Shown here piece by piece: positions 47,465-57,479 of a DNA stretch of 64,000 nt. Numbering within the stretch: position 1 is the first letter of the stretch; each line of letters opens with the position of its first letter. The DNA comes from Pseudomonadota bacterium. GTDB taxonomy: Bacteria > Pseudomonadota > Alphaproteobacteria > Sphingomonadales > Sphingomonadaceae. The stretch is from assembly GCA_046733255.1 (NCBI GenBank), contig JBKPOU010000029.1:5714-69713 (forward strand), in the 5' to 3' direction. A model generated the notes under the pieces. That model was not told the origin of the DNA, ran no database searches, and saw only the letters and a list, made by a program, of their open reading frames with translations. Made by a program: the position numbers and the translations under genes.

Positions 47465-47895
47465 CGCGGAGGCCATCGATCCTGCCATGCCGGAGGGACG
47501 TCAGCTGTCAAGCGCCGAGCGGCGCTTTGCGCGAATTCGAGCGTAAGCCGAAGCGCTTCCGGCCAGGCACTCGCGCCCGCTCGTTCCGCCCACTCGACCA
47601 GCAGCACTGCATCGGACGCCGAGTCCAGCCCGAGCTCGTCGATCTCACCCGCTTCCTCGATCCGGTAAAGGTCGACGTGCCACACCGGCAGCTCCAGCTC
47701 GTCGTACGGCTGAACGATCGCAAAGGTCGGGCTCGGGACCTCGCCTTTATGCCCCAGGGAGCCGAGGATCGCCCTCGCAAGCGCGGTCTTGCCGACTCCG
47801 AGGGGCCCGGAAAGCGCGATCACGTCGCCCCGGCGAAGCAAGGGAGCGAGCTTCTCGCCCAACGCCACTGTCGCCCGCTCGTCGGCAAGGATCAT
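47461..47895 (-). CDS. tsaE: tRNA threonylcarbamoyladenosine biosynthesis ATPase
   Basis: GPLGVGKT, VPSPTF, HVDLYR, VEWAE. Confidence 0.96.
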   Translation of the reverse strand: MILADERATVALGEKLAPLLRRGDVIALSGPLGVGKTALARAILGSLGHKGEVPSPTFAIVQPYDELELPVWHVDLYRIEEAGEIDELGLDSASDAVLLVEWAERAGASAWPEALRLTLEFAQSAARRLTADVPPAWQDRWPPR

Positions 47896-50243
47896 TGCGG
47901 TGCGCGCGGGATCGTCAGGGTGACGGTCGTGCCCTTGCCCTTTGTCGAGACGAGGTCGACCTTTCCGCCGTGCGCCTCCGCGAACTGGCGGGCGAGCGGG
48001 AGACCGAGGCCGAGGGCCGCCTCGCCCTGCGACGGGTCCTGTTTCACTCGGTCAAAGCGGTTGAAGACCCGCGGCAAGTCCTTCTTCGCGATCCCCGGGC
48101 CGTTGTCACTGATCTGCACGAAAGCCTGGTCGTCATCGCCCCACGCCTTCACCGCGATCTTCCCGCCGCGCTCGGTATATGCAGCCGCATTCTCCAGGAG
48201 ATGCTCGATGGATTCCCGAAGCCGCCTGGCGTCCCCGACAACCGTTCCGGTTGTCTCCGAAATCTCGCTTGAGAGCTTCTGCCCTTTTTCTTTCGTCCGC
48301 GCTTCGAACTTGTCGACCGCTGTCCGGCACAGCCCTTCCATGTCGACCCGCTCGCGCTCGAGAATGATGCCGACCGAGTCGCCCTGGGTCAGGTCGAGGA
48401 CGTTGTTGATCAGCTTCGACAGGCGCTCCACCGACTCCAGGATCGCTTGAACATAATCCGAAGCGGCTGGGCTGAGCGCGCCGGCGTAACCCTGCGAAAG
48501 CATTTCCGCGAAGCCGCCGATCGAGGTGAGCGGAGTGCGTAGCTCGTAGCTCATGTTGGCGACGAAGTCGGTCTTAACGCGGTCGGCCTGCTCGAGCGCG
48601 GTGGCACGTTCACGCAATGCGGCCTCAATTCGGGTCGAGTCGGTCACATCGACCAAGGTGAAGAGCGCGTTACCGTCGGGGAGGGGCACAGCGGCGAACT
48701 CGAAATGGCGTCCGTCCGTCACCGTGATCCGCCCATTGGCGGGCTCGCGGTCGCTGGTCGTCTTGCGGACCATCTCGCGAATCTGCGCCGCTGCGGTCGG
48801 ATTGACGAGCTTGCGGGCGAGCGCAGGAACCATCTCGTCGACCCGCGGATGCTCGGCCAGCCATTCCTCGTCGAGTCCCCAGACCTGGCTGAATCGGCGG
48901 TTCCAAAGATAGAGCCGCCCATCGCTCGCGAACACGCCGATCGCTTCGAACAGATTGTCGAACGTCGCAGAGCGAACCCGAAGCAATGTGTCGCGCGCCG
49001 AGGCGAGACGCGCCTGCTCGGTCCGGTCCTCAAGAAACAGCCGAAGGCCGCCGTCGGGAAGCGTCTGGGCGACCACCCGCCAATGCTCGCCGCCGGGCAG
49101 CATCCAATCCTCTTCGATGACCTCTTCCGGGCTCGTGAACCAGTCGCGGCGCTCGGCCTTCCAGGTCGGGAAATCGCGGGTCTCCGGGACTCGGTTCTGC
49201 TCGCGCATCCGCTCGATCACCCGGTCGAATTCGGGCTTCTCGTTCAGCCAGTCCGGATCGAGCTGCCCCATCGCCGCGAACGGGCGATTGAAGAAGCTCA
49301 GCGACCGGTCGGCGTCGAATTGCGCCGCGCCCGCGCTCATGCGGTCGACTAGGTCGCGCTGCGACTGGACCTGCCGCGCAAGTTCTGCCCGAGTGTCCTC
49401 GAGATCCTGGACGTCGATCGCGAATCCGGCGACCGCGCCGGTGGGGAGCGGCACGTTCACGATGTTCAGCATGCGCCGCTCGCCGCGGACGATCGCTGCC
49501 TGGCTGCGAGCAGTCGGCTTGCCGCTGTCGAGAGCGGTCATCGCCGCGGCCTTCGCCTCCTCCGTGTCACCGACCAGCTCGCTCGACCGGGCGATGACGT
49601 CGGCCGCATCCCGGCCCTCGACGGCATCGACGAAGGCGCTGTTGACGAGGCCGAGGTTGAGGTCGGGACCCCGGTACCACATCGGAAAGGGCGCGGCTTC
49701 GATCAGCCGAGTGAGGGCGTCGAGCGCCGCTTCGGTCTGGTTGAGGCGAAGCGACAACTTTGAGCGCTCGGCCTCGGCAGTGCTGGAATCGAGCAGCCAC
49801 AGGAGCATCGTGCCGGGAAGTTCGGGGGCAGGAGCCGGCGCACCGCGGACGTCGAAGACCCGGCCCGAGCCGGCGACCCGGACCTGGCACTGCAGCTGGC
49901 TGCCGGACATCGATGCTTCGCGAAGCTGCGCTGCGAGCGTTTCCACGTCTACCGCGACGAGGCCTCTGTCGGTTCCGGCAAGGGCCTTCAGGTCTCGCGG
50001 AAGCTTGTCGATCCCGATCTCGCGGAGCAGCCGCGCATCTGTCTCGATCGAACCGTCGGCGCGGACCACGAGCGGCCGTCCCGGCGAAAGATCGAGCAAT
50101 GTCTGCAAGGAGCGCGCGGCCGACAGAACGCCGCTAGCTGCGCGAAGCCGTCGCGCCGCCATGATCGAAAGGATCGCGGCAATGAGGATCCATAACGCCG
50201 CGAGCGCGGCGGCGAGGACGCCCGTAGTCGCAAGCCCGGCCAC
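47892..50243 (-). CDS. divL: DivL-type PAS pseudo-histidine kinase
   Basis: N-terminal TM helix, multiple PAS domains, H-box reads FVANMSYELRTPL (Tyr in place of His); conserved position upstream of tsaE. Confidence 0.85.
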   Translation of the reverse strand: MAGLATTGVLAAALAALWILIAAILSIMAARRLRAASGVLSAARSLQTLLDLSPGRPLVVRADGSIETDARLLREIGIDKLPRDLKALAGTDRGLVAVDVETLAAQLREASMSGSQLQCQVRVAGSGRVFDVRGAPAPAPELPGTMLLWLLDSSTAEAERSKLSLRLNQTEAALDALTRLIEAAPFPMWYRGPDLNLGLVNSAFVDAVEGRDAADVIARSSELVGDTEEAKAAAMTALDSGKPTARSQAAIVRGERRMLNIVNVPLPTGAVAGFAIDVQDLEDTRAELARQVQSQRDLVDRMSAGAAQFDADRSLSFFNRPFAAMGQLDPDWLNEKPEFDRVIERMREQNRVPETRDFPTWKAERRDWFTSPEEVIEEDWMLPGGEHWRVVAQTLPDGGLRLFLEDRTEQARLASARDTLLRVRSATFDNLFEAIGVFASDGRLYLWNRRFSQVWGLDEEWLAEHPRVDEMVPALARKLVNPTAAAQIREMVRKTTSDREPANGRITVTDGRHFEFAAVPLPDGNALFTLVDVTDSTRIEAALRERATALEQADRVKTDFVANMSYELRTPLTSIGGFAEMLSQGYAGALSPAASDYVQAILESVERLSKLINNVLDLTQGDSVGIILERERVDMEGLCRTAVDKFEARTKEKGQKLSSEISETTGTVVGDARRLRESIEHLLENAAAYTERGGKIAVKAWGDDDQAFVQISDNGPGIAKKDLPRVFNRFDRVKQDPSQGEAALGLGLPLARQFAEAHGGKVDLVSTKGKGTTVTLTIPRAPQ

Positions 50244-50309
50244 GCCTTGTTTATCCCCCGCTACGCATGCCCGGAGAGATTAGACCCTCCGGCAGCGTTG
50301 CAAAGTGCG

Positions 50310-50341
50310 AAAAAAAGGGCCGCCTCCCGTAGGAAGCGCCC
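50310..50341 (-). terminator. Intrinsic terminator of the TonB-dependent receptor gene
   Basis: GGGCGCTTCC-TACG-GGAGGCGGCCC followed by T7 on the minus strand; C(UACG)G tetraloop. Confidence 0.85.
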
Positions 50342-50357
50342 CAAAGGTCGATTTTAC

Positions 50358-53300
50358 TCAGGCGATCAGAACTTTGCCGTCACCGAGGCGAAAATCCGAC
50401 GGCCGAGATAGTCGTACTGGCTGCCGTTGATCGGCGCCCTTCCGATCACGCCTCCGGCCTGGCTTCCAATCGCGGAAACTCGCGCCGGCTTCGTGTCGAA
50501 GATGTTGCGCATGCCGACCGTGAAGTCGAAGCGCGGGCCGACGTTCACCGTGACCGAAGCCGAGTGATAGAATTTCGGCTCGCCCCGGAAGTCCGGGCAA
50601 AGGGTCTTGGCGGGGTTCAAGGCGCTCGGGAAGCAGACGTCTCCGTTGTTTACCAACTCGACGTCGCGGCGGTCGGATGTGCCTCCGACCACGTCGAGAC
50701 CGTAGACGACGGTGAACGGCTGGTAATCCCAGGTGGCGTCGAACTCGCCGACCCACTTCGGATCGCCCATTTCGCCATTGTCGTCCGTTGCGGTTCCACC
50801 GAACAGCTCGAACTTGTCCTTCAGCTGCCACGTCATCTGGGCGAGAAGCGCGAGCTTCCCGTGGCGCCCCATGTCCTGGTTGAACCGGCCGGTAACATCG
50901 ATGCCCCGATTTTGCTGGCTATTGATGTTCAGGAACGGGTCCGAGACGGTGATAATTTGATCATCTCGGGTGGCGCCCGGATCTGTTTCGCGAACGAAGA
51001 GATCGCAAAGCGGGTCATCCGGGAAGAATTCCGAGTTGTAGCAACCCGATAGGATGTTCGCCGGCCCGAGAGTCGCAATCTCGCCCTTCACCTTGATGTC
51101 GAAATAATCGACGGCAACGCTGAACCGCCCGCCGTCCCAGAACCACCTGTCCGGAGTGAGGATCACGCTCACTGTCTTCGCGGTTGAGGTTTCCGGGTCG
51201 AGAAGACCTATGCCGCCGCCGCTGCTGACAAGAGCGGAGCTTGTTCCGCCACCGCTGTAGCCGGCAGGTACGCCGTCGGCCTGGCAATTCGCCTGCAGCC
51301 GCGGGTCATTTGACCTCTCCCAGTGGATGCACGGGTCGATCGCTATCTGGCTGGCAAAGCTCGTTTCGTCGTTCAGGAACGACTCGAACAGGGCCGGAGC
51401 GCGGAAGGATGTGCCGATTGTACCGCGGAAACGCAGCCAGTTGTTGACCTGCCAGTTGCCGCCGATCTTGTAGGTCCAGTTTCCCTTGTCGGAATCGTGT
51501 ACCCCGTCAGCCCGCTCGGAATAGACGTTGGTGAGGCGAGCCGCAGCCGACAGATCGAGCGATTGTGCGAAGGGCATATCGTGGAGAAGCGGAATTTCCG
51601 TTTCGCCGAAAATCTCGCTCGTGGTCTGGTGACCGGCCGTAACGCCGGCTGCAGTCAGGCCCCAAGAATTTCCGGCTTGTGTAGCCGGTCCGGGAACGTC
51701 GTTGATCTCGTCTCGCCGCCACTGCACGCCGAGCGCCAGCTGGACCGGGCCTGCCGGTAGCTCGAACAGGTTGCCCGACGCGGAGGCCTCTCCCGTCAAC
51801 TGCTTGTAAAGGGTGTTGCCCTTGTCCTCGCCGAGCAGGAACGCAGCCTCCTCCGGAGTGAAGTCGCCCCGCAGGACGCGCGGGTCGGTGAAGTCTATGT
51901 CGACGCAGGGCACGCCGCGGATCGACGTGGTCGTTCCCTCGCAGGACTGGGTCCTCAGGTTGAACGTGTCGAACGCGTCCTGGAAGACGATGTCGAACGT
52001 ATAGTCGCCATCCGAACGGCTGTACTGGCCCCAGGTGTTCCACTCCCAGCTTGGCAGCAGGTTTCCGAAATCGCCCTGGGCGCCGACGACTCCACGCCAA
52101 TAGTCGACGTTCGTCCTGGTACCGAAGTGGTCGGTTACGGCCACAGGGATAAGGATGACCTCGCCGCTGAACTCCTGGTTGAACGGGTCGCCCGAGAACA
52201 GGTCACCGCTGTAGCCGAACAGGTACGGGAGAACCGAACTTCCGGTGAACTGTTGCGGGAAAATTTGGCGGCTGCCGTCCGACTTGGTCTTGCGCTTGTT
52301 GTACAGGAATTCGGCGAACAGCTCGGCGTGCGGGCTCAGCTCGATGCCGCCATTCGCATAAACCGTGAAACGGTCCGTCTTGGGGATGATGCTGTCACCG
52401 AGCGGAACCGTGAAATTCGTGATTCCGGTAGAAACCTCGTCGAAGTTGACGGGCAGGACATTGGCTGGTGCGCAGAACTGGATGAAGTTCGTGCAGGGCC
52501 GCAATGGCGGGACAAACGGAGCCGACGGATTGTTCGGATCATTGAACTGAATCGCGGCGACGTCGAACGGAGCACCCGGAAAAGCGCACAGGTTCGAATT
52601 GAAAAACCCGGGCTGCACCAGGCAAGGGTTGTCGAAATCGACGGGAATGCCGAAAGCGTCTGCAACGTCGTTCTGGAAATCCGCCAATGCGATCACCGGG
52701 CCGAAGATGTCGCCTTCGCACGCAGGCTCCCCAGTGCGCGGATCGATGAGGTCGTTGCGATTGCCCTGCTCGTCGAACGTATAGTCTTCGGTGCAGCCAA
52801 GGAAGTCGCGGTCGCCGCGCTCGAGCTCGTTCCGGTGGAAATAGCTTCCGCTGACCAAAACGTGAGCGTTGCCCCAGTCCTTGCCCCAGGTGACGCTAGT
52901 GTCATAGGTCTCGCCGCCGCTCTGGATCGGCGGAGACGCGAAGAGCCGAAGCTCAACGCCGTCCGTGCTTCGGCGAGTGATCACGTTGACGACGCCTGCG
53001 ATCGCGTCCGAACCGTAAATCGAAGAGGCGCCGGTCTTCAGCACTTCCACCGATTCGACGATCGAAGACGGAAGGACGTTGAGGTCGAACGACGCTATCG
53101 AGCCACGCGTACCGGCCGGACCGGCGCGCTTCCCGTTCAGGAGCACGAGGGTGCGCTCGGCGCCGAGCCCGCGCAGCGAAATCGTCTCTGCGCCCGGTCC
53201 GCCGTTGGTCACGAAGTTGGACGAAAGAAACGAGGTGATCTGCGTCGATCCCGCAGCGACGATCGACTGCTGGAGGATTTCCGCGGTGTCGGCACTGCCC

Positions 53301-53662
53301 TGCTTGAGCGACAGCTGGGGATCGATGACCGTGATCGGGTCGGGGCTCGTGAATGCGTTCTTCCGGAGCCGGGAGCCGGTGACGACGATCGCCTGGTCGG
53401 GTGTCTTTTCAGCCTGCTTTTCCGCGACCTCGGGCGGCGGCATGGTGGCCAGCTCGCCTGCTTCGTTGGCGCTCCCTTCCGCTCCGGCCTGCCCCTGGAT
53501 GCAGAGATCGCGGTCCGTTGGATTTGCCAGTTTCGCGCAATCCTGCACTTCGGTGGCGGTCACAGGCGCGGCGGGCGGCTCGTTCTGCGCGAAGGCCGGC
53601 GCGCTGAATGCCAGTGCGGCGACGGATGCGCTGCATAGCAGCAGGCGCGACGAATCGATCAT
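50358..53662 (-). CDS. TonB-dependent outer membrane receptor
   Basis: Signal peptide, IVVTGSRL TonB box, ISLRGLGAERTLVLLNG plug, VEVLKTGASSIYGSDAIAGVVN, C-terminal F; ATG at 53662 after GGGGAG. Confidence 0.96.
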
Positions 53663-53758
53663 TGAACTCTCCCCAAAATCAGCCCTCACCGAAAGTTAGG
53701 CAGGGGAATTGGCGGAACGGAAGCCGTTTGAGTTCGACCGGTTCGGAATCTGAAACTT

Positions 53759-53776
53759 TGTAGCATTAATGCAACA
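53759..53776. promoter_or_regulatory. 18-bp palindrome in the divergent TBDR / sulfotransferase promoter region
   Basis: TGTAGCATTAATGCAACA, one mismatched pair. Confidence 0.45.
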
Positions 53777-53876
53777 TTCAGGTTCTGTCGGTTTCCCGAC
53801 AGTTTCGAGGAGTCGGGAGCGCATTTTCGGTCGCCCCTTTTTTAAACGGTGCCAGCTGGTTACTGGCCCACCCGCG

Positions 53877-55457
53877 ATGACCGGCACCAAGTCCAAAACA
53901 TACCCCAGGCTCGAAGCCGCGGAAGACATGCTGCGCAGCGGTCTCGGTGAAGAGGCTGCTGCCCAAGTGATCGAGCATCTGCGCGACGAAGGAGACGAAC
54001 CGCAGGGCTTCGTTCTGCTGGGCGAGATCGCCTCAAAGGCCGGCGCTTACGTCCAGGCGGAGCAATTCCTTCGCCGCGCGATCGTTCTCGGCGCGGCCAC
54101 CTACGCGGTGCATCGCGACCTTGCCCTCGTGGTCCTGAAGCAGGATCGCCTCGAGGAAGCGCTCGGTGCTTTCACTGCTCTCCAACGGCACGTCGACGAT
54201 CTGGGCCTCAAGGCGACGCGGGCGATGATCCTCGATCGGCTGGGGCGGACGGACGAAGCGCTGGCCGAGCATGAGCGAGTGATCGCCGAATCCCGCGCCG
54301 AACCTCAACATTGGATCGCGTACGGCCATAGCCTGCGCTTTGCAGGCCGGACGGACGAAGCAGTCGCGGCCTACCGTCGCGCACTTTCGCAGGCTCCGGA
54401 CTGCGGCGAAGCCTGGTGGAGCCTTGCCGACGTCAAATCGCAAGGCCTCGCCGACGAAGACCTCGCTGAAATGCAGCGCCAGCTCGGACTGGTTGCCGGC
54501 TCGCCAGAGGCCGCTGCGATTCACATGGCGCTTGGGCGGGGCTGGAACGACCGCGGCGATTTTGCCCGGGCGATGGACGATTACCGTGAGGGAAATCGCA
54601 TACGGGCCGAACGCGCCAATTACGACCCCAACGACCTCACCCGGGAAATCGACCAGTTCATCCACGAAACGGGACCAGGCGAGTTCGGGCCGCCAGCCGA
54701 AAGCGATGTCCCAACGCCGATTTTCCTGGTGAGCCTGCCGCGCTCCGGCTCGACTTTGCTCGAACAAATGCTGGCTCGGCACCCGGACATCGAGGCCGTC
54801 GGAGAACTTCCCTACGTCCGCGCCCTGATGCGCGCGTCAATGGAAGTGCACATGCGGCGGCGCGTACTGGACGTTCCCGAATATGTTGCTCAGCTAGGCG
54901 GCGAAGAAAGAAGCGCTCTCGGGCAGGAATATCTGAGGCGCGCGGCTCAGCATCGCCGAACGGACGCCCGCTATTTCATCGACAAGATGCCGTCCAACTG
55001 GACCGACATCCCTTTCATCCGCGCGATCCTTCCGCAGGCGCGGTTCATCGAGATACGCCGCGACCCGATGGATTGCTGCTTTTCCAACTACACTCACCAT
55101 TTCGGCTCCGCGCTGGCGGCGTCGTTCGACCTCGTCCATCAGGCGCGAGCCTGCGTCGACTACACGCGGCTGATGGATCACCTGCAGCACATCGCGCCCG
55201 GTATGGTCTGCACGATCCGCTACGAACAGCTGGTCGAGACTCCCGAGAGTGAGCTTAGGAAAGCGCTCGATCACCTCGGACTCGAGTGGACGGATGAACT
55301 GTTGCGGTTTCACGAATCGGGCGGTTCGGTCCGGACGCCGAGCACCGAGCAAGTTCGCCAGCCCTTGAACCGGTCGGGCATTGGCCGCTGGAAGGATTAC
55401 GCCGAGTGGCTTCAGCCGCTGCGCGACACGCTCGGGCCGCTAGCCCACCCTCAGTAG
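53877..55457 (+). CDS. TPR-repeat protein with C-terminal PAPS-dependent sulfotransferase domain
   Basis: TPR-like helices in the N-terminal half; 5'-[22 protein letters not shown]; IDKMP; 3'-[14 protein letters not shown]; [12 protein letters not shown]. Start at 53877 or 53928. Confidence 0.9.
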
Positions 55458-56863
55458 CGGTAATGTTCCGGCTTGAACGGGCCGTCCTGCGACACGCCGA
55501 TATAGGCCGCCTGTTTCTCGTTCAACTTCGTCAGGTGCACCCCAAGCTTCTCGAGGTGAAGCCGCGCGACCTTCTCGTCGAGGTGCTTGGGCAATACATA
55601 GACGTCGTTCTTGTATTGGTCGGACTTCGTCCAGAGCTCGATCTGGGCGAGCACCTGGTTGGTGAAGCTGGAGCTCATCACGAAGCTGGGGTGCCCCGTC
55701 GCGCAGCCCAGGTTCACCAGGCGGCCTTTGGCTAGCACGATGATCTTCTTGCCGTCGGGGAACTCGACCTCGTCGACCTGCGGCTTGATCTCCGTCCACT
55801 TCATGTTGGCCAGCGCGCCGATCTGAATTTCTGAATCGAAGTGACCGATGTTCGAGACGATGGCCATGTTCTTCATCGCCCGCATGTGGTCGAGCGTGAT
55901 GACGTCCATGTTGCCGGTCGCGGTGACGAAGATGTCGGCGCGCTTCACCGCCTCCTCCATCGTCACCACCTCATAGCCTTCCATCGCCGCCTGCAGAGCG
56001 CAGATCGGGTCGACTTCGGTGACCAGCACGCGAGCGCCGCCGTTGCGGAGCGATGCCGCCGAGCCCTTGCCGACGTCACCGTAGCCGGCGACGCAGGCGA
56101 CCTTGCCGGCCAGCATCACGTCGGTCGCGCGGCGGATGGCGTCGACCAGCGACTCCTTGCAGCCGTAGAGGTTGTCGAACTTCGACTTGGTGACGCTGTC
56201 GTTGACGTTGATCGCCGGGAACGGGAGCTTGCCCTGCTTGGCGAGGTCGTATAGCCGATGGACGCCCGTCGTCGTCTCCTCGGAAACGCCCTTGATGGCC
56301 TCGACCGTCTTCGTGAGATAGCCCGGACGCTCCTTCAGGAAGCGGTTCAGGGTCGCGGCGAAGATCTCCTCTTCCTCGTTCGAAGGCACGAACAGGCTCT
56401 CGCCCTTCTCGACCCGATAGCCCCACAGCGCGAACATCGTCGCGTCGCCGCCGTCGTCGAGGATCATGTTGCAGGTCTGGTCCTGGCCCCAGTCGAAGAT
56501 TCGGACGACATAGTTCCAATAGTCTTCGAGCGTCTCACCCTTGATCGCGAACACCGGCGTGCCGCCGGCCGCGATCGCCGCCGCCGCATGGTCCTGAGTG
56601 GAGAAGATGTTGCAGCTTGCCCAGCGGACCTCGGCGCCTAGAGCGATCAACGTCTCGATCAGAACAGCGGTCTGAATCGTCATGTGCAGCGAGCCGGTGA
56701 TCCGCGCACCCGTGAGCGGCTTTGCCGCGCCATATTCCTCGCGCAGCGCCATCAGGCCCGGCATCTCCGTCTCGGCGATCTCGATTTCCTTGCGGCCGAA
56801 ATCGGCGAGGGAAATGTCCTTCACGACATAGTCGTTGAAACGCGTCTCAGCCTGGGTCGCCAC
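55451..56863 (-). CDS. ahcY: Adenosylhomocysteinase
   Basis: [51 protein letters not shown]. Confidence 0.99.
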
Positions 56864-56940
56864 GAAAGTCTCCGCAAAAATGTGTTTGCCAAATGGATTT
56901 GGGATGCGCGCGCCCTAGCGATGTAAGGCGTCCAAAGCAA

Positions 56941-56960
56941 ATATAAAGAATTCTTTATAT
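56941..56960. promoter_or_regulatory. Perfect 20-bp palindrome upstream of ahcY; candidate SahR operator
   Basis: ATATAAAGAATTCTTTATAT; core ATAAAG-N4-CTTTAT. Confidence 0.7.
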
Positions 56961-57479
56961 GTTGGAAGGGCTGCTCGCTGAGCCGGGACCCAGAGCACGT
57001 TGCATATAGACAGTGTCGAGCCATCGGTCCTTCTTCCACCCGACTGAGGACAGACGTCCAACAGTCTCGAAGTCGCAGCTCTCGTGAAGCTTCACCGACG
57101 TCGGCTCCGCACCTCCTATGACGGCAATCATTTGTCGGAAGCCGTACGCTTCGGCTCGACGGCACAATTCTTGAAGGAGCGCTTTCCCGATCCCGCGACC
57201 CAGGCTGTCCGCTCGAACGTAGATGCTGTTCTCGCACGTGAAGCGATACGCCGGGCGGTCGCGGAGCTGCTCGGCATAGGAGTAGCCGACCAGCTGATTG
57301 CCTTCGCAGGCAACCAGGAAGGGCCAGGCGCGCGCCGTGATCCTCTCGATCTTGGCTCGAGTGAACGTCACTGACGGCGGTTCGATTTCGTACGATGCCG
57401 TGCCGTTGAGCACGTGGTGCGCATAGATCCCGGCGATCGCCACCGCGTCCTCATTTCGAACGTCCCGTATTTCGATCAC
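56955..57479 (-). CDS. GNAT N-acetyltransferase (YncA/MddA/Pat-like)
   Basis: IYAHHVLNGTASYE, ENSIYV, GRGIGKALL, SVKLHE, VGWKKDRWLD. Confidence 0.88.
   Translation of the reverse strand: MIEIRDVRNEDAVAIAGIYAHHVLNGTASYEIEPPSVTFTRAKIERITARAWPFLVACEGNQLVGYSYAEQLRDRPAYRFTCENSIYVRADSLGRGIGKALLQELCRRAEAYGFRQMIAVIGGAEPTSVKLHESCDFETVGRLSSVGWKKDRWLDTVYMQRALGPGSASSPSNI

Follow-up and report, generated by a model that had tools for sequence, protein, structure and literature searches.

What is a cytoplasmic sulfotransferase with a TPR array doing beside the gene of a TonB-dependent receptor, and on what would it act? The two genes were found in a 64,000-nucleotide stretch of DNA from a soil sphingomonad of the Sphingomonadaceae (the window), where a two-gene cassette, made up of the TonB-dependent receptor gene (TBDR, minus strand) and the divergent TPR-sulfotransferase gene (ST, plus strand), is flanked by ahcY and the gene of a DivL-type kinase. 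A sequence-only reading of this DNA had proposed that the pair imports or senses a ligand and modifies it, and the physical elements that it listed are all present, with several details corrected here. I give a probability of roughly 45% to a different answer, namely that the ST O-sulfates the neighbouring surface protein before export, and the same weight to the view that the cassette exemplifies a module of two parts found in many bacteria, in which a cytoplasmic TPR-TPST-type enzyme is paired with the gene of an exported surface protein.

The two genes and their surroundings

The left flank is a DivL-type histidine kinase gene (47892..50243, minus strand; PAS, HisKA and HATPase domains) with the motif SYELRTPL, in which Tyr replaces the phospho-His, a substitution that I take to be the hallmark of DivL. 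The right flank is ahcY, coding for adenosylhomocysteinase (55451..56863, minus strand; TIGR00936, 609 bits), whose end shares 7 nt with the 3' end of the ST gene. Immediately past the TBDR stop codon, a consensus scan of the sequence marked an intrinsic-terminator-like element (50310..50342, minus strand) composed of a hairpin (50317-50342) and a T-run (50310-50316). A "strong terminator" had been claimed at this place: it is there and credible, but with a 66-nt stretch folding at -24 kcal/mol (z = -2.1) it is not exceptional.

The TBDR ORF spans 50366-53689 on the minus strand, and the ATG at 53662 is its probable start, supported by a separate gene call on a 99%-identical contig, giving a gene (50366..53662) for 1098 aa with a C-terminal Phe (...SVTAKF). 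The protein begins with a predicted Sec signal peptide (53588-53662, residues 1-25, MIDSSRLLLCSASVAALAFSAPAFA|QNE), followed by a low-complexity extension of 65 residues with one Cys pair (Cys42/Cys54, 53501-53539) ahead of the TonB box DQAIVVTGSR (53369-53398, residues 89-98), in which I92, V94, T95, G96, and R98 are invariant or nearly so in the clade alignment. Plug (about 52991-53350; PF07715, 64.2 bits) and barrel (about 50504-52120; PF00593 / TonB_dep_Rec_b-barrel, 103 bits) both score above their gathering scores. The Cys pair before the TonB box, singled out earlier as unusual, proved real: it is kept in a 74%-identical ortholog and absent from the wider clade. The mature receptor has 16 Cys in 8 sequence-adjacent pairs, five of which are invariant across the clade; the description as a Cys-rich protein of about 1100 aa was right as to size, but a Cys content of 1.5% is normal for this clade (range 8-21 Cys). 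None of the curated NCBIfam TBDR subfamilies scored above cut-off for this receptor. A FecA-type signalling TBDR was rejected, given that Pfam returned plug and barrel only, with no signalling domain, and no FecA-type sigma/anti-sigma pair is found among the neighbours (divL, ST, ahcY). A SusC/SusD locus was rejected as well (TIGR04056, 22.5 bits vs a cut-off of 368; no SusD-like neighbour).

The start of the ST had been placed at 53769, which is 36 codons too early. These codons are unconserved in comparison with a 69%-identical ortholog, where 'MQHSG' alone matches and lies within a conserved DNA block, and the gene calls of relatives give 523-530 aa, which together place the start at 53877 (53877..55457, plus strand, 526 aa). 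The protein is composed of a TPR solenoid (53904-54668, residues 10-264) and a TPST-like catalytic domain (54714-55445, residues 280-523) that contains the 5'-phosphosulfate-binding loop PRSGST (54738-54755, residues 288-293). Pfam assigns TPR matches and Sulfotransfer_3 (PF13469; E 1e-46, 160.5 bits vs a cut-off of 27), and among solved structures the human protein-tyrosine sulfotransferases TPST2 and TPST1 come nearest in sequence (E about 2e-13, across the whole domain). PRSGST, GE, DK, RRD..S, RYEQLV, and PSTEQV align to their TPST2 counterparts and are all invariant among 24 family members; their roles (5'-phosphosulfate loop, 3'-phosphate motif, catalytic Glu/Lys/Ser) are presumably those of the TPST2 residues after which they were assigned. 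The AF2 model (pLDDT 88, pTM 0.87) has TPST1 with a bound peptide as its top Foldseek match in the PDB (E 3e-8, target-normalised TM-score 0.65), while its TPR part matches SPINDLY (SPY) and OGT in both Foldseek and phmmer. No signal peptide was found in the ST or in 23 distant homologs, and the enzyme is predicted to be cytoplasmic. The earlier picture of a cytoplasmic TPR protein with intact PAPS-binding motifs is borne out in this way, as is that of an enzyme of the bacterial protein sulfotransferase type, for which TPST likeness in sequence and predicted fold suggests a peptide or protein substrate.

The divergent intergenic region (53663..53876, 214 bp) shares three blocks with the ortholog L084 (53680-53706, 53712-53724, and 53765-53782), which are candidate promoter or operator sites. 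The last block, ATTAATGCAACATTCAGG, is a partial 6-3-6 palindrome and includes the 53769 ATG previously taken as the ST start. The region matched no Rfam family, and no RNA structure in it was significant. Against the ortholog, dN/dS is 0.17 for the ST and 0.16 for the TBDR, showing by computation that purifying selection acts on both genes alike.

Co-occurrence and origin of the pair

Pairing of an ST with a TBDR recurs in hundreds of bacteria. A TBDR ORF lies at most 1 kb from the ST in 53 of the 56 genome loci that were testable, i.e. had an ST homolog with adequate flanks, against a background of just 10 other TBDR-like ORFs across the 1.36 Mb of those loci, and the partner ORFs are true TBDRs. 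ST and TBDR are also the only conserved families at ST loci, present in 61 and 62 of 71 loci, respectively, with the next family reaching 10. At three of the 56 testable loci an exported partner is not evident. In the reverse direction, a TPR-ST and/or X, the second, small sulfotransferase-like gene of related cassettes, which lacks TPR, adjoins 28 of 34 TBDRs that are at least 36% identical to the one at 50366-53662, compared to none of 15 TBDRs below 36% with any sulfotransferase-like neighbour. ST subfamilies follow TBDR clades. Co-conservation of the two gene kinds, the lack of which the sequence-only reading would have counted against itself, held in both directions, and the two gene kinds are functionally linked. 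Orphan STs occur at L020, L028, and L044.

Further genes accompany the pair in places. The loci of TBDR relatives contain a Trp halogenase in 6/80 cases and an exported S9 peptidase in 22/80 (signal peptides present), and M20 and S9 peptidases recur by another TBDR class. In an Asticcacaulis locus the gene order is TBDR, small ST, Asp/Asn beta-hydroxylase, TPR-ST, and the hydroxylase between two STs made an earlier pointer to 2OG oxygenases apt. My search of the literature returned no paper on TPR-sulfotransferase/TBDR pairing.

A genomic island or recent insertion was rejected as the origin of the cassette, since other Sphingomonadaceae have related cassettes at this very place, with ahcY on one side and the DivL-type kinase gene (or tsaE) on the other. 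GC content is 0.59-0.66 in the cassette vs 0.63-0.70 in the flanks; there is no integrase, and flanking repeats do not exceed chance level, as had been noted before. What had been called a 5.1-kb insert is what is left of an older cassette that is widespread in Sphingomonadaceae: a TBDR-X-ST operon that has lost its own TBDR and X, neither of which is present in the window. The ST nests in the 'after-X' ST clade, and the TBDR at 50366-53662 belongs to a sister clade that elsewhere has another ST subfamily. The ST descends from the third gene of such an operon, with the divergent arrangement being secondary; the shared control region posited earlier does exist as a 214-bp region with three conserved blocks, but arose secondarily. 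The same reduced layout is found in an ortholog with 69% (ST) and 74% (TBDR) identity. With the original TBDR deleted, the ST would now act on the neighbouring TBDR of the sister clade or on TBDRs whose genes lie in other places, and the link between the ST and its present neighbour in the window is the weakest part of the argument.

Exported neighbours and competing readings

ST homologs were also surveyed in a small, hand-picked set of 17 annotated plasmid or chromid systems. In 12 of these the ST adjoins an exported protein, of five kinds: a TBDR (Novosphingobium, Pseudoalteromonas, Asticcacaulis, Komagataeibacter), an autotransporter (Enterobacter/Lelliottia, Thalassospira, Pacificitalea, and Ralstonia, where the APS kinase gene cysC comes next), a porin (Cereibacter), a type I secretion substrate (Sulfitobacter and Comamonas, where the ST lies between a giant adhesin gene and TolC/ABC/HlyD), or a flagellin (Paroceanicella). 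The exported partner is not evident in the other five. The feature common to the ST neighbours is an exported protein, not import, and the position of ST homologs beside exported proteins that import nothing points to modification of the exported neighbour.

This tells against the direction proposed by the sequence-only reading. Worked out in more detail, the TBDR would import a peptide or phenolic ligand, a transporter encoded elsewhere would take it across the inner membrane, and the ST, after capture by the TPR array, would O-sulfate and so activate, inactivate or trap it. The adjacency to a TBDR, the S9 and M20 peptidases near TBDRs, which suggest peptide ligands, and the fit of a TPST-like domain plus TPR array to peptides favour such a route, but the module has no conserved transporter for the inner membrane, it is not obvious what a cell would gain by spending PAPS on a nutrient, and the homologs next to the four kinds of exported protein other than TBDRs are left unexplained. 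Ligand modification after import is unlikely on this balance.

Somewhat less probable still, the ST could be a leftover of the deleted TBDR-X-ST operon that acts on other TBDRs or other proteins encoded elsewhere, its adjacency to the TBDR being historical rather than functional. The placement of the two genes in non-matching clades, the missing X and original TBDR, and the existence of orphan STs are in keeping with this; against it, the reduced layout is kept in the ortholog with both genes under purifying selection, the intergenic blocks are conserved, and the clade of the present neighbour is itself ST-associated.

The poorest of the alternatives is that the ST, with X, halogenases, and hydroxylases in relatives, tailors a metabolite made from an amino acid or peptide, to be released and re-imported through the TBDR in the manner of a siderophore or signal: this follows a prediction for TBDR/JmjC/Trp-halogenase/SapC clusters (Iyer et al. 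2010; PMC2938197) and agrees with X and Trp halogenase near relatives of this TBDR, with the Asticcacaulis TBDR accompanied by two STs and an Asp/Asn hydroxylase, and with the other TBDR class scoring best, below cut-off, against a TonB-siderophore subfamily model, but scaffold genes (NRPS, NIS, precursor peptide) and an exporter are not conserved, internal gaps of the module are too short for a scaffold or precursor gene, Fur boxes are not enriched ahead of ST->TBDR operons, a single genome or locus can hold several paralogous modules, and non-TBDR partners go unexplained. Iyer et al. read similar TBDR/halogenase/hydroxylase clusters as metabolite biosynthesis, with TBDRs likewise tied to cytoplasmic tailoring-type enzymes, and did not describe a TPR-sulfotransferase/TBDR pair (PMC2938197). 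Assignment of the locus to that neighbourhood type was rejected, as the window contains no halogenase, SapC or JmjC gene.

Proposed sulfation before export

Sulfation of the neighbour before export has several partial precedents. TPST1/TPST2 (PDB 5wrj, 3ap1), nearest among solved structures in sequence and predicted fold, share the PRSG(S/T)T loop, the GE catalytic-base position, the Lys, the 3'-phosphate-binding R...S, and the C-terminal (P/R)ST(E/D)QV at only 20-24% identity; they are Golgi type II membrane proteins, whereas the ST, which has an N-terminal TPR solenoid of 260 residues, is predicted to be a soluble enzyme of the cytoplasm. The Rax system of Xanthomonas oryzae is the one system for protein tyrosine sulfation in bacteria that is regarded as established. 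RaxST/RaxX-RaxA-RaxB likewise combines a cytoplasmic PAPS-dependent enzyme with an adjacently encoded exported polypeptide substrate. RaxST reportedly sulfates RaxX (PMC4892823) and also Omp1X, a protein of the outer membrane (PMC4892823; PMC6637879). A few distant ST homologs do lie in type I secretion operons (Comamonas, Sulfitobacter), the Comamonas one in a setting like that of Rax. A RaxX-RaxSTAB-type system was rejected for the locus itself: the window has no peptidase-ABC exporter/adaptor and, in line with what had been observed earlier, no precursor peptide gene. RaxST, compared here by description, is not known to have a TPR domain, unlike the ST. OGT, SPINDLY, and Caulobacter FlmG, a TPR-glycosyltransferase acting on flagellins, do combine an N-terminal TPR solenoid recruiting protein substrates with a C-terminal transferase, but they transfer glycosyl groups by an unrelated catalytic fold. 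Aah/AIDA-I, TibC/TibA, and HMW1C/HMW1 are adjacently encoded cytoplasmic modifiers and their exported beta-barrel substrates, modified before export; these enzymes, unlike the ST, are glycosyltransferases.

What I infer for the substrate (the neighbour), the acceptor residue, and the effect on the receptor is the following. In the cytoplasm, the TPR solenoid would capture the neighbouring outer-membrane protein as a precursor that has yet to fold, and the catalytic domain would move sulfate from PAPS onto hydroxyl side chains, with TPST likeness suggesting Tyr as the acceptor and Ser/Thr being possible as well. The sulfated precursor would then leave through Sec and BAM, and the receptor would show fixed negative charges that may tune ligand or partner binding and presumably sit on its surface loops or on the N-terminal extension in the periplasm. 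The TBDR contains two acidic-Tyr sites (EDYTFDE and DGDYTFD), which are not kept in relatives; no conserved acceptor motif of this acidic-Tyr kind was found in ST partners, nor were such motifs found in autotransporter passengers. To my knowledge, no sulfated TBDR or autotransporter has ever been reported. The X gene of the Sphingomonadaceae cassette, and the Trp halogenases and exported S9 peptidases added in relatives, also speak against sulfation of the neighbour.

Cytoplasmic TPR-TPST enzymes fill >6,000 clusters at 50% identity. It is conceivable, if a little less probable than the reading for the cassette itself, that bacteria possess a large unrecognised protein O-sulfation system, in which each such enzyme is dedicated to its neighbouring exported protein. 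The system would target TBDRs above all, with autotransporters, porins, adhesins of type I secretion, and flagellins as further substrates. Sulfation of an exported neighbour would be a kind of protein modification not yet described in bacteria. In Proteobacteria of soil and water, sulfate esters would then be present on many outer-membrane receptors and would influence how these capture ligands or are recognised by phages, bacteriocins or hosts.

The receptor/sulfotransferase locus

The receptor and sulfotransferase genes lie between a DivL-type kinase gene and ahcY. The kinase (47892-50243, minus strand) combines PAS, HisKA and HATPase domains, and its motif SYELRTPL places tyrosine at the usual phospho-histidine site. 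This replacement of the phospho-accepting histidine is the DivL signature and bears out the name divL given by the sequence-only reading. The protein from the TonB-dependent receptor (TBDR) gene (50366-53662, minus strand) starts with a signal peptide, carries an extension of 65 residues, the TonB box DQAIVVTGSR and Plug and barrel domains, and ends in phenylalanine; a hairpin and a T-run directly follow the stop codon of its gene. The gene of the cytoplasmic TPR-sulfotransferase (ST; 53877-55457, plus strand) is divergent from it, and ahcY (55451-56863, minus strand) forms the far flank. ST and ahcY are convergent, their 3' ends overlapping by 7 nt (55451-55457) without a terminator in between. 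A gene at 59311-61206 matches the Pfam family Peptidase_M2, of angiotensin-converting-enzyme-like peptidases, over its full length (722 bits), and the syntenic region of relatives contains M28 and S9 peptidases.

A soil metagenome contig with 99% identity also has the pair, its genes being called at 1098 and 526 aa, and the window sequence turned up in no fewer than 20 metagenome runs from soil and rhizosphere. Metatranscriptomes contributed a single short exact contig for each gene, too thin for an argument on co-regulation. The closest named relatives are Sphingomonadaceae. Searching the window for a second sulfotransferase, a homolog of X (a small sulfotransferase-like protein encoded beside related receptors), another TBDR or an APS kinase yielded none.

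The ST start had been placed at 53769, but the ortholog at locus L084 (69% identical) does not preserve the 36 extra codons. What is conserved around that ATG is only a DNA block of 18 nt, ATTAATGCAACATTCAGG (53765-53782), a partial 6-3-6 palindrome with a perfect match in L084 amid otherwise diverged intergenic DNA. Two more intergenic blocks are conserved (53680-53706 and 53712-53724), and all three are candidate operator or promoter sites. Rfam gave no match at E ≤ 1 over 50000-57000, and the predicted RNA fold of the ST leader was non-significant (z = -0.41).

Conservation and history of the pair

The pair is genuine and has been conserved in evolution. Scanning one genome per species for ST produced 80 loci from Sphingomonadales, Caulobacterales, Hyphomonadaceae, Steroidobacterales, Lysobacterales, Alteromonadales and others. 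Where at least 3.5 kb was available on both sides, a TBDR ORF lay within 1 kb of ST in 53 of 56 loci, and the remaining 1.36 Mb of these loci held only 10 other TBDR-like ORFs. The partners are true TBDRs with Plug and barrel, the commonest layout being ST (~650 aa) then TBDR (~810 aa) on the same strand; in the three loci lacking an adjoining TBDR, ST is surrounded by housekeeping genes. Gene families were clustered on greedy non-overlapping ORFs (high-GC DNA gives spurious overlapping ones), and ST and TBDR were the only conserved genes. The reverse scan, of metagenomes with the TBDR clade alignment, gave another 80 loci (L087-L166): given adequate flanks, a sulfotransferase-like gene adjoined 28 of 34 receptors at least 36% identical to that of the window, but none of the 15 below 36%. 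The link between receptor and sulfotransferase drawn by the sequence-only reading thus holds in both directions. At L106 (1-11102) and L102, ST/TBDR modules of different subfamilies sit side by side, which argues for whole-module duplication and diversification.

The commonest partner in the reverse loci was X, a conserved cytoplasmic protein of 262 aa whose sulfotransferase-like loop reads PKSG(T/S)H and which also has an RDP motif (L082:9206-9994; L085:7590-8378; and ~38 of loci L087-L166). Its matches to Pfam sulfotransferases were sub-threshold only, and PDB sequences gave no significant match. In many bacteria of soil and sea, the X gene directly follows that of a TBDR of this clade, whether or not a TPR-ST is present; the gene order in Sphingomonadaceae is TBDR, X, TPR-ST.

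The pair had been described as an insert between ahcY and divL, but Sphingomonas flavescens and several metagenomic sphingomonads carry related cassettes in the same slot, so the window cassette is not a recent insertion. The absence of flanking repeats did hold, the repeat search returning chance-level matches only. In the receptor tree, the window TBDR groups with its L084 ortholog and a Croceicoccus paralog as the sister group of the X-linked TBDRs, whereas the window ST branches within the 'after-X' STs, at a great distance from those found with the sister TBDR clade elsewhere. The simplest history would be that the middle TBDR and X disappeared from the TBDR(-) / TBDR-X-ST(+) arrangement of a Croceicoccus-like ancestor. 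Having thereby lost its original partner, the window ST has a tie to the present TBDR that is the least secure step of the argument. The reduced form is kept in L084 (TBDR 74%, ST 69% identical), with dN/dS between the two loci of 0.16 for TBDR, 0.17 for ST and 0.08 for ahcY. Orthology of the window TBDR to the minus-strand TBDR in L085/L086 was considered and rejected: the two are only 25-28% identical, and the trees correct the placement.

The enzyme and the receptors

ST matches Sulfotransfer_3 (E 1e-46) and TPR families in Pfam. Against all PDB sequences, the best matches of its catalytic half were human TPST2 and TPST1 (E about 2e-13, full domain); sulfotransferases of the CurM, olefin-synthase and heparan sulfate types ranked below them. 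All PAPS loops and TPST2 catalytic positions align, and they are invariant in 24 homologs. An AF2 model (pLDDT 88, pTM 0.87) predicts an alpha/beta domain preceded by ~15 TPR-type helices; Foldseek ranked TPST1 with bound peptide first, and the TPR part matched SPINDLY and OGT. No signal peptide was detected in ST or in 23 distant homologs. At E ≤ 1e-30, the catalytic-domain family is very large, taking in 6,452 clusters out of 1.84 billion representatives; members are often 500-700 aa and some have 2 to 6 ST domains. Giant proteins of 1,000-2,800 aa (P0121-P0130) were seen with 2 to 6 copies. NCBI names ST by its domains only, and no curated NCBIfam name reached cut-off for ST, TBDR, the partner TBDR class or X.

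The receptor had been called Cys-rich, but the 16 cysteines of its mature form are ordinary for the clade; they form eight sequence-adjacent pairs, five of them invariant. The cysteine pair noted ahead of the TonB box (C42/C54) is real and recurs in the 74%-identical ortholog, but is absent from the wider clade. Among Steroidobacterales-like gammaproteobacteria, ST-linked TBDRs have in common an N-terminal motif, MTRSRxRKLxR..., that is strongly basic, unusually long and placed ahead of the signal peptide's hydrophobic core (L027, L033, L053, L054, L063, L068, L079 and L080); it is possibly a recognition element.

Exported partners and the proposed sulfation of surface proteins

In a small hand-picked survey of annotated plasmid and chromid records, ST lay beside an exported-protein gene in 12 of 17 distinct systems. 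The partner is a TBDR in Novosphingobium pLA3, Pseudoalteromonas, Komagataeibacter and Asticcacaulis (the last with a small ST and an Asp/Asn beta-hydroxylase between TBDR and ST); an autotransporter in Enterobacter 638 and Lelliottia, Thalassospira, Pacificitalea and the Ralstonia solanacearum megaplasmid; a porin in Cereibacter; a type I secretion substrate in Sulfitobacter and Comamonas, where ST has the gene of a giant cadherin-domain protein on one side and TolC/ABC/HlyD on the other; and a flagellin in Paroceanicella. The R. solanacearum genes (L168:2447-10155) form an apparent operon of autotransporter, TPR-ST, TPR protein and cysC (APS kinase); the plasmid table leaves all but one of them without annotation, and cysC points to a dedicated PAPS supply beside the enzyme. 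These partners span four or five export routes, and all are synthesised in the cytoplasm and exported unfolded.

Together with the TPR array and the TPST-like domain, such partners favour a reading, given a probability of roughly 45%, in which ST would sulfate the neighbouring protein before its export. ST would then be a dedicated modification enzyme encoded beside its surface-protein substrate. Acidic-tyrosine sites in the window TBDR (residues 294 and 554) are not conserved across the clade, and acidic-tyrosine enrichment was sought and absent in the partner autotransporters and porin; with no acceptor motif found, tyrosine as acceptor is argued from TPST likeness only. The pre-export logic is that of RaxST/RaxX, and Aah/AIDA-I, TibC/TibA, HMW1C/HMW1 and FlmG/flagellin follow it for other modifications. 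RaxST is reported to sulfate Omp1X too (PMC4892823).

Uptake of a ligand by the TBDR followed by its sulfation by ST is an unlikely alternative. Peptidase neighbours suit it: exported S9 (prolyl-oligopeptidase family) peptidases adjoin clade TBDRs in 22 of loci L087-L166 (e.g. L134:3557-5611), including receptors without any sulfotransferase, which hints at peptide ligands. However, the non-TBDR partners import nothing, and there is no conserved inner-membrane transporter. Less likely still is the release of a tailored metabolite and its retrieval via the TBDR, after Iyer et al. 2010 (PMC2938197), as scaffold genes and an exporter are lacking, and Fur-box matches upstream of 68 ST->TBDR operons were distributed as in shuffled sequence; no 9-mer was enriched there. 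Tryptophan halogenases occur near clade TBDRs in six loci (L158:1772-7247, L136, L121, L128, L130 and L132), either as TBDR, X, halogenase or upstream of TBDR, which ties the clade to the unexplained TBDR/halogenase clusters of Iyer et al. 2010.

That survey of TBDR/hydroxylase/halogenase neighbourhoods is the nearest published work. Full-text searches found no description of a TPR-sulfotransferase paired with a TBDR or autotransporter, nor did literature on sulfotransferases or tyrosine sulfation with TPR, tryptophan halogenase/SapC or particular genera. Both proteins belong to known families; the pairing and the proposed sulfation of surface proteins are what appears undescribed.

Essentially a single system of bacterial protein sulfation is on record, RaxST/RaxX. 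If TPR-TPST enzymes do sulfate adjoining receptors and adhesins, sulfation would be a common and overlooked modification of bacterial surfaces, and TBDRs would carry a chemical feature missing from ligand-binding studies and structural models, in the TBDR-rich lineages, namely Sphingomonadales, Caulobacterales, Steroidobacterales, Lysobacterales and Alteromonadales. Cultivated carriers include Sphingomonas flavescens, Novosphingobium pentaromativorans US6-1 (pLA3, genes JI59_RS19735-45), Ralstonia solanacearum (megaplasmid) and Enterobacter sp. 638 (pENTE01). Such sulfation would also offer a testable explanation for an old puzzle, the clustering of cytoplasmic enzymes of the tailoring kind (halogenases, hydroxylases and sulfotransferases) with TBDR genes.
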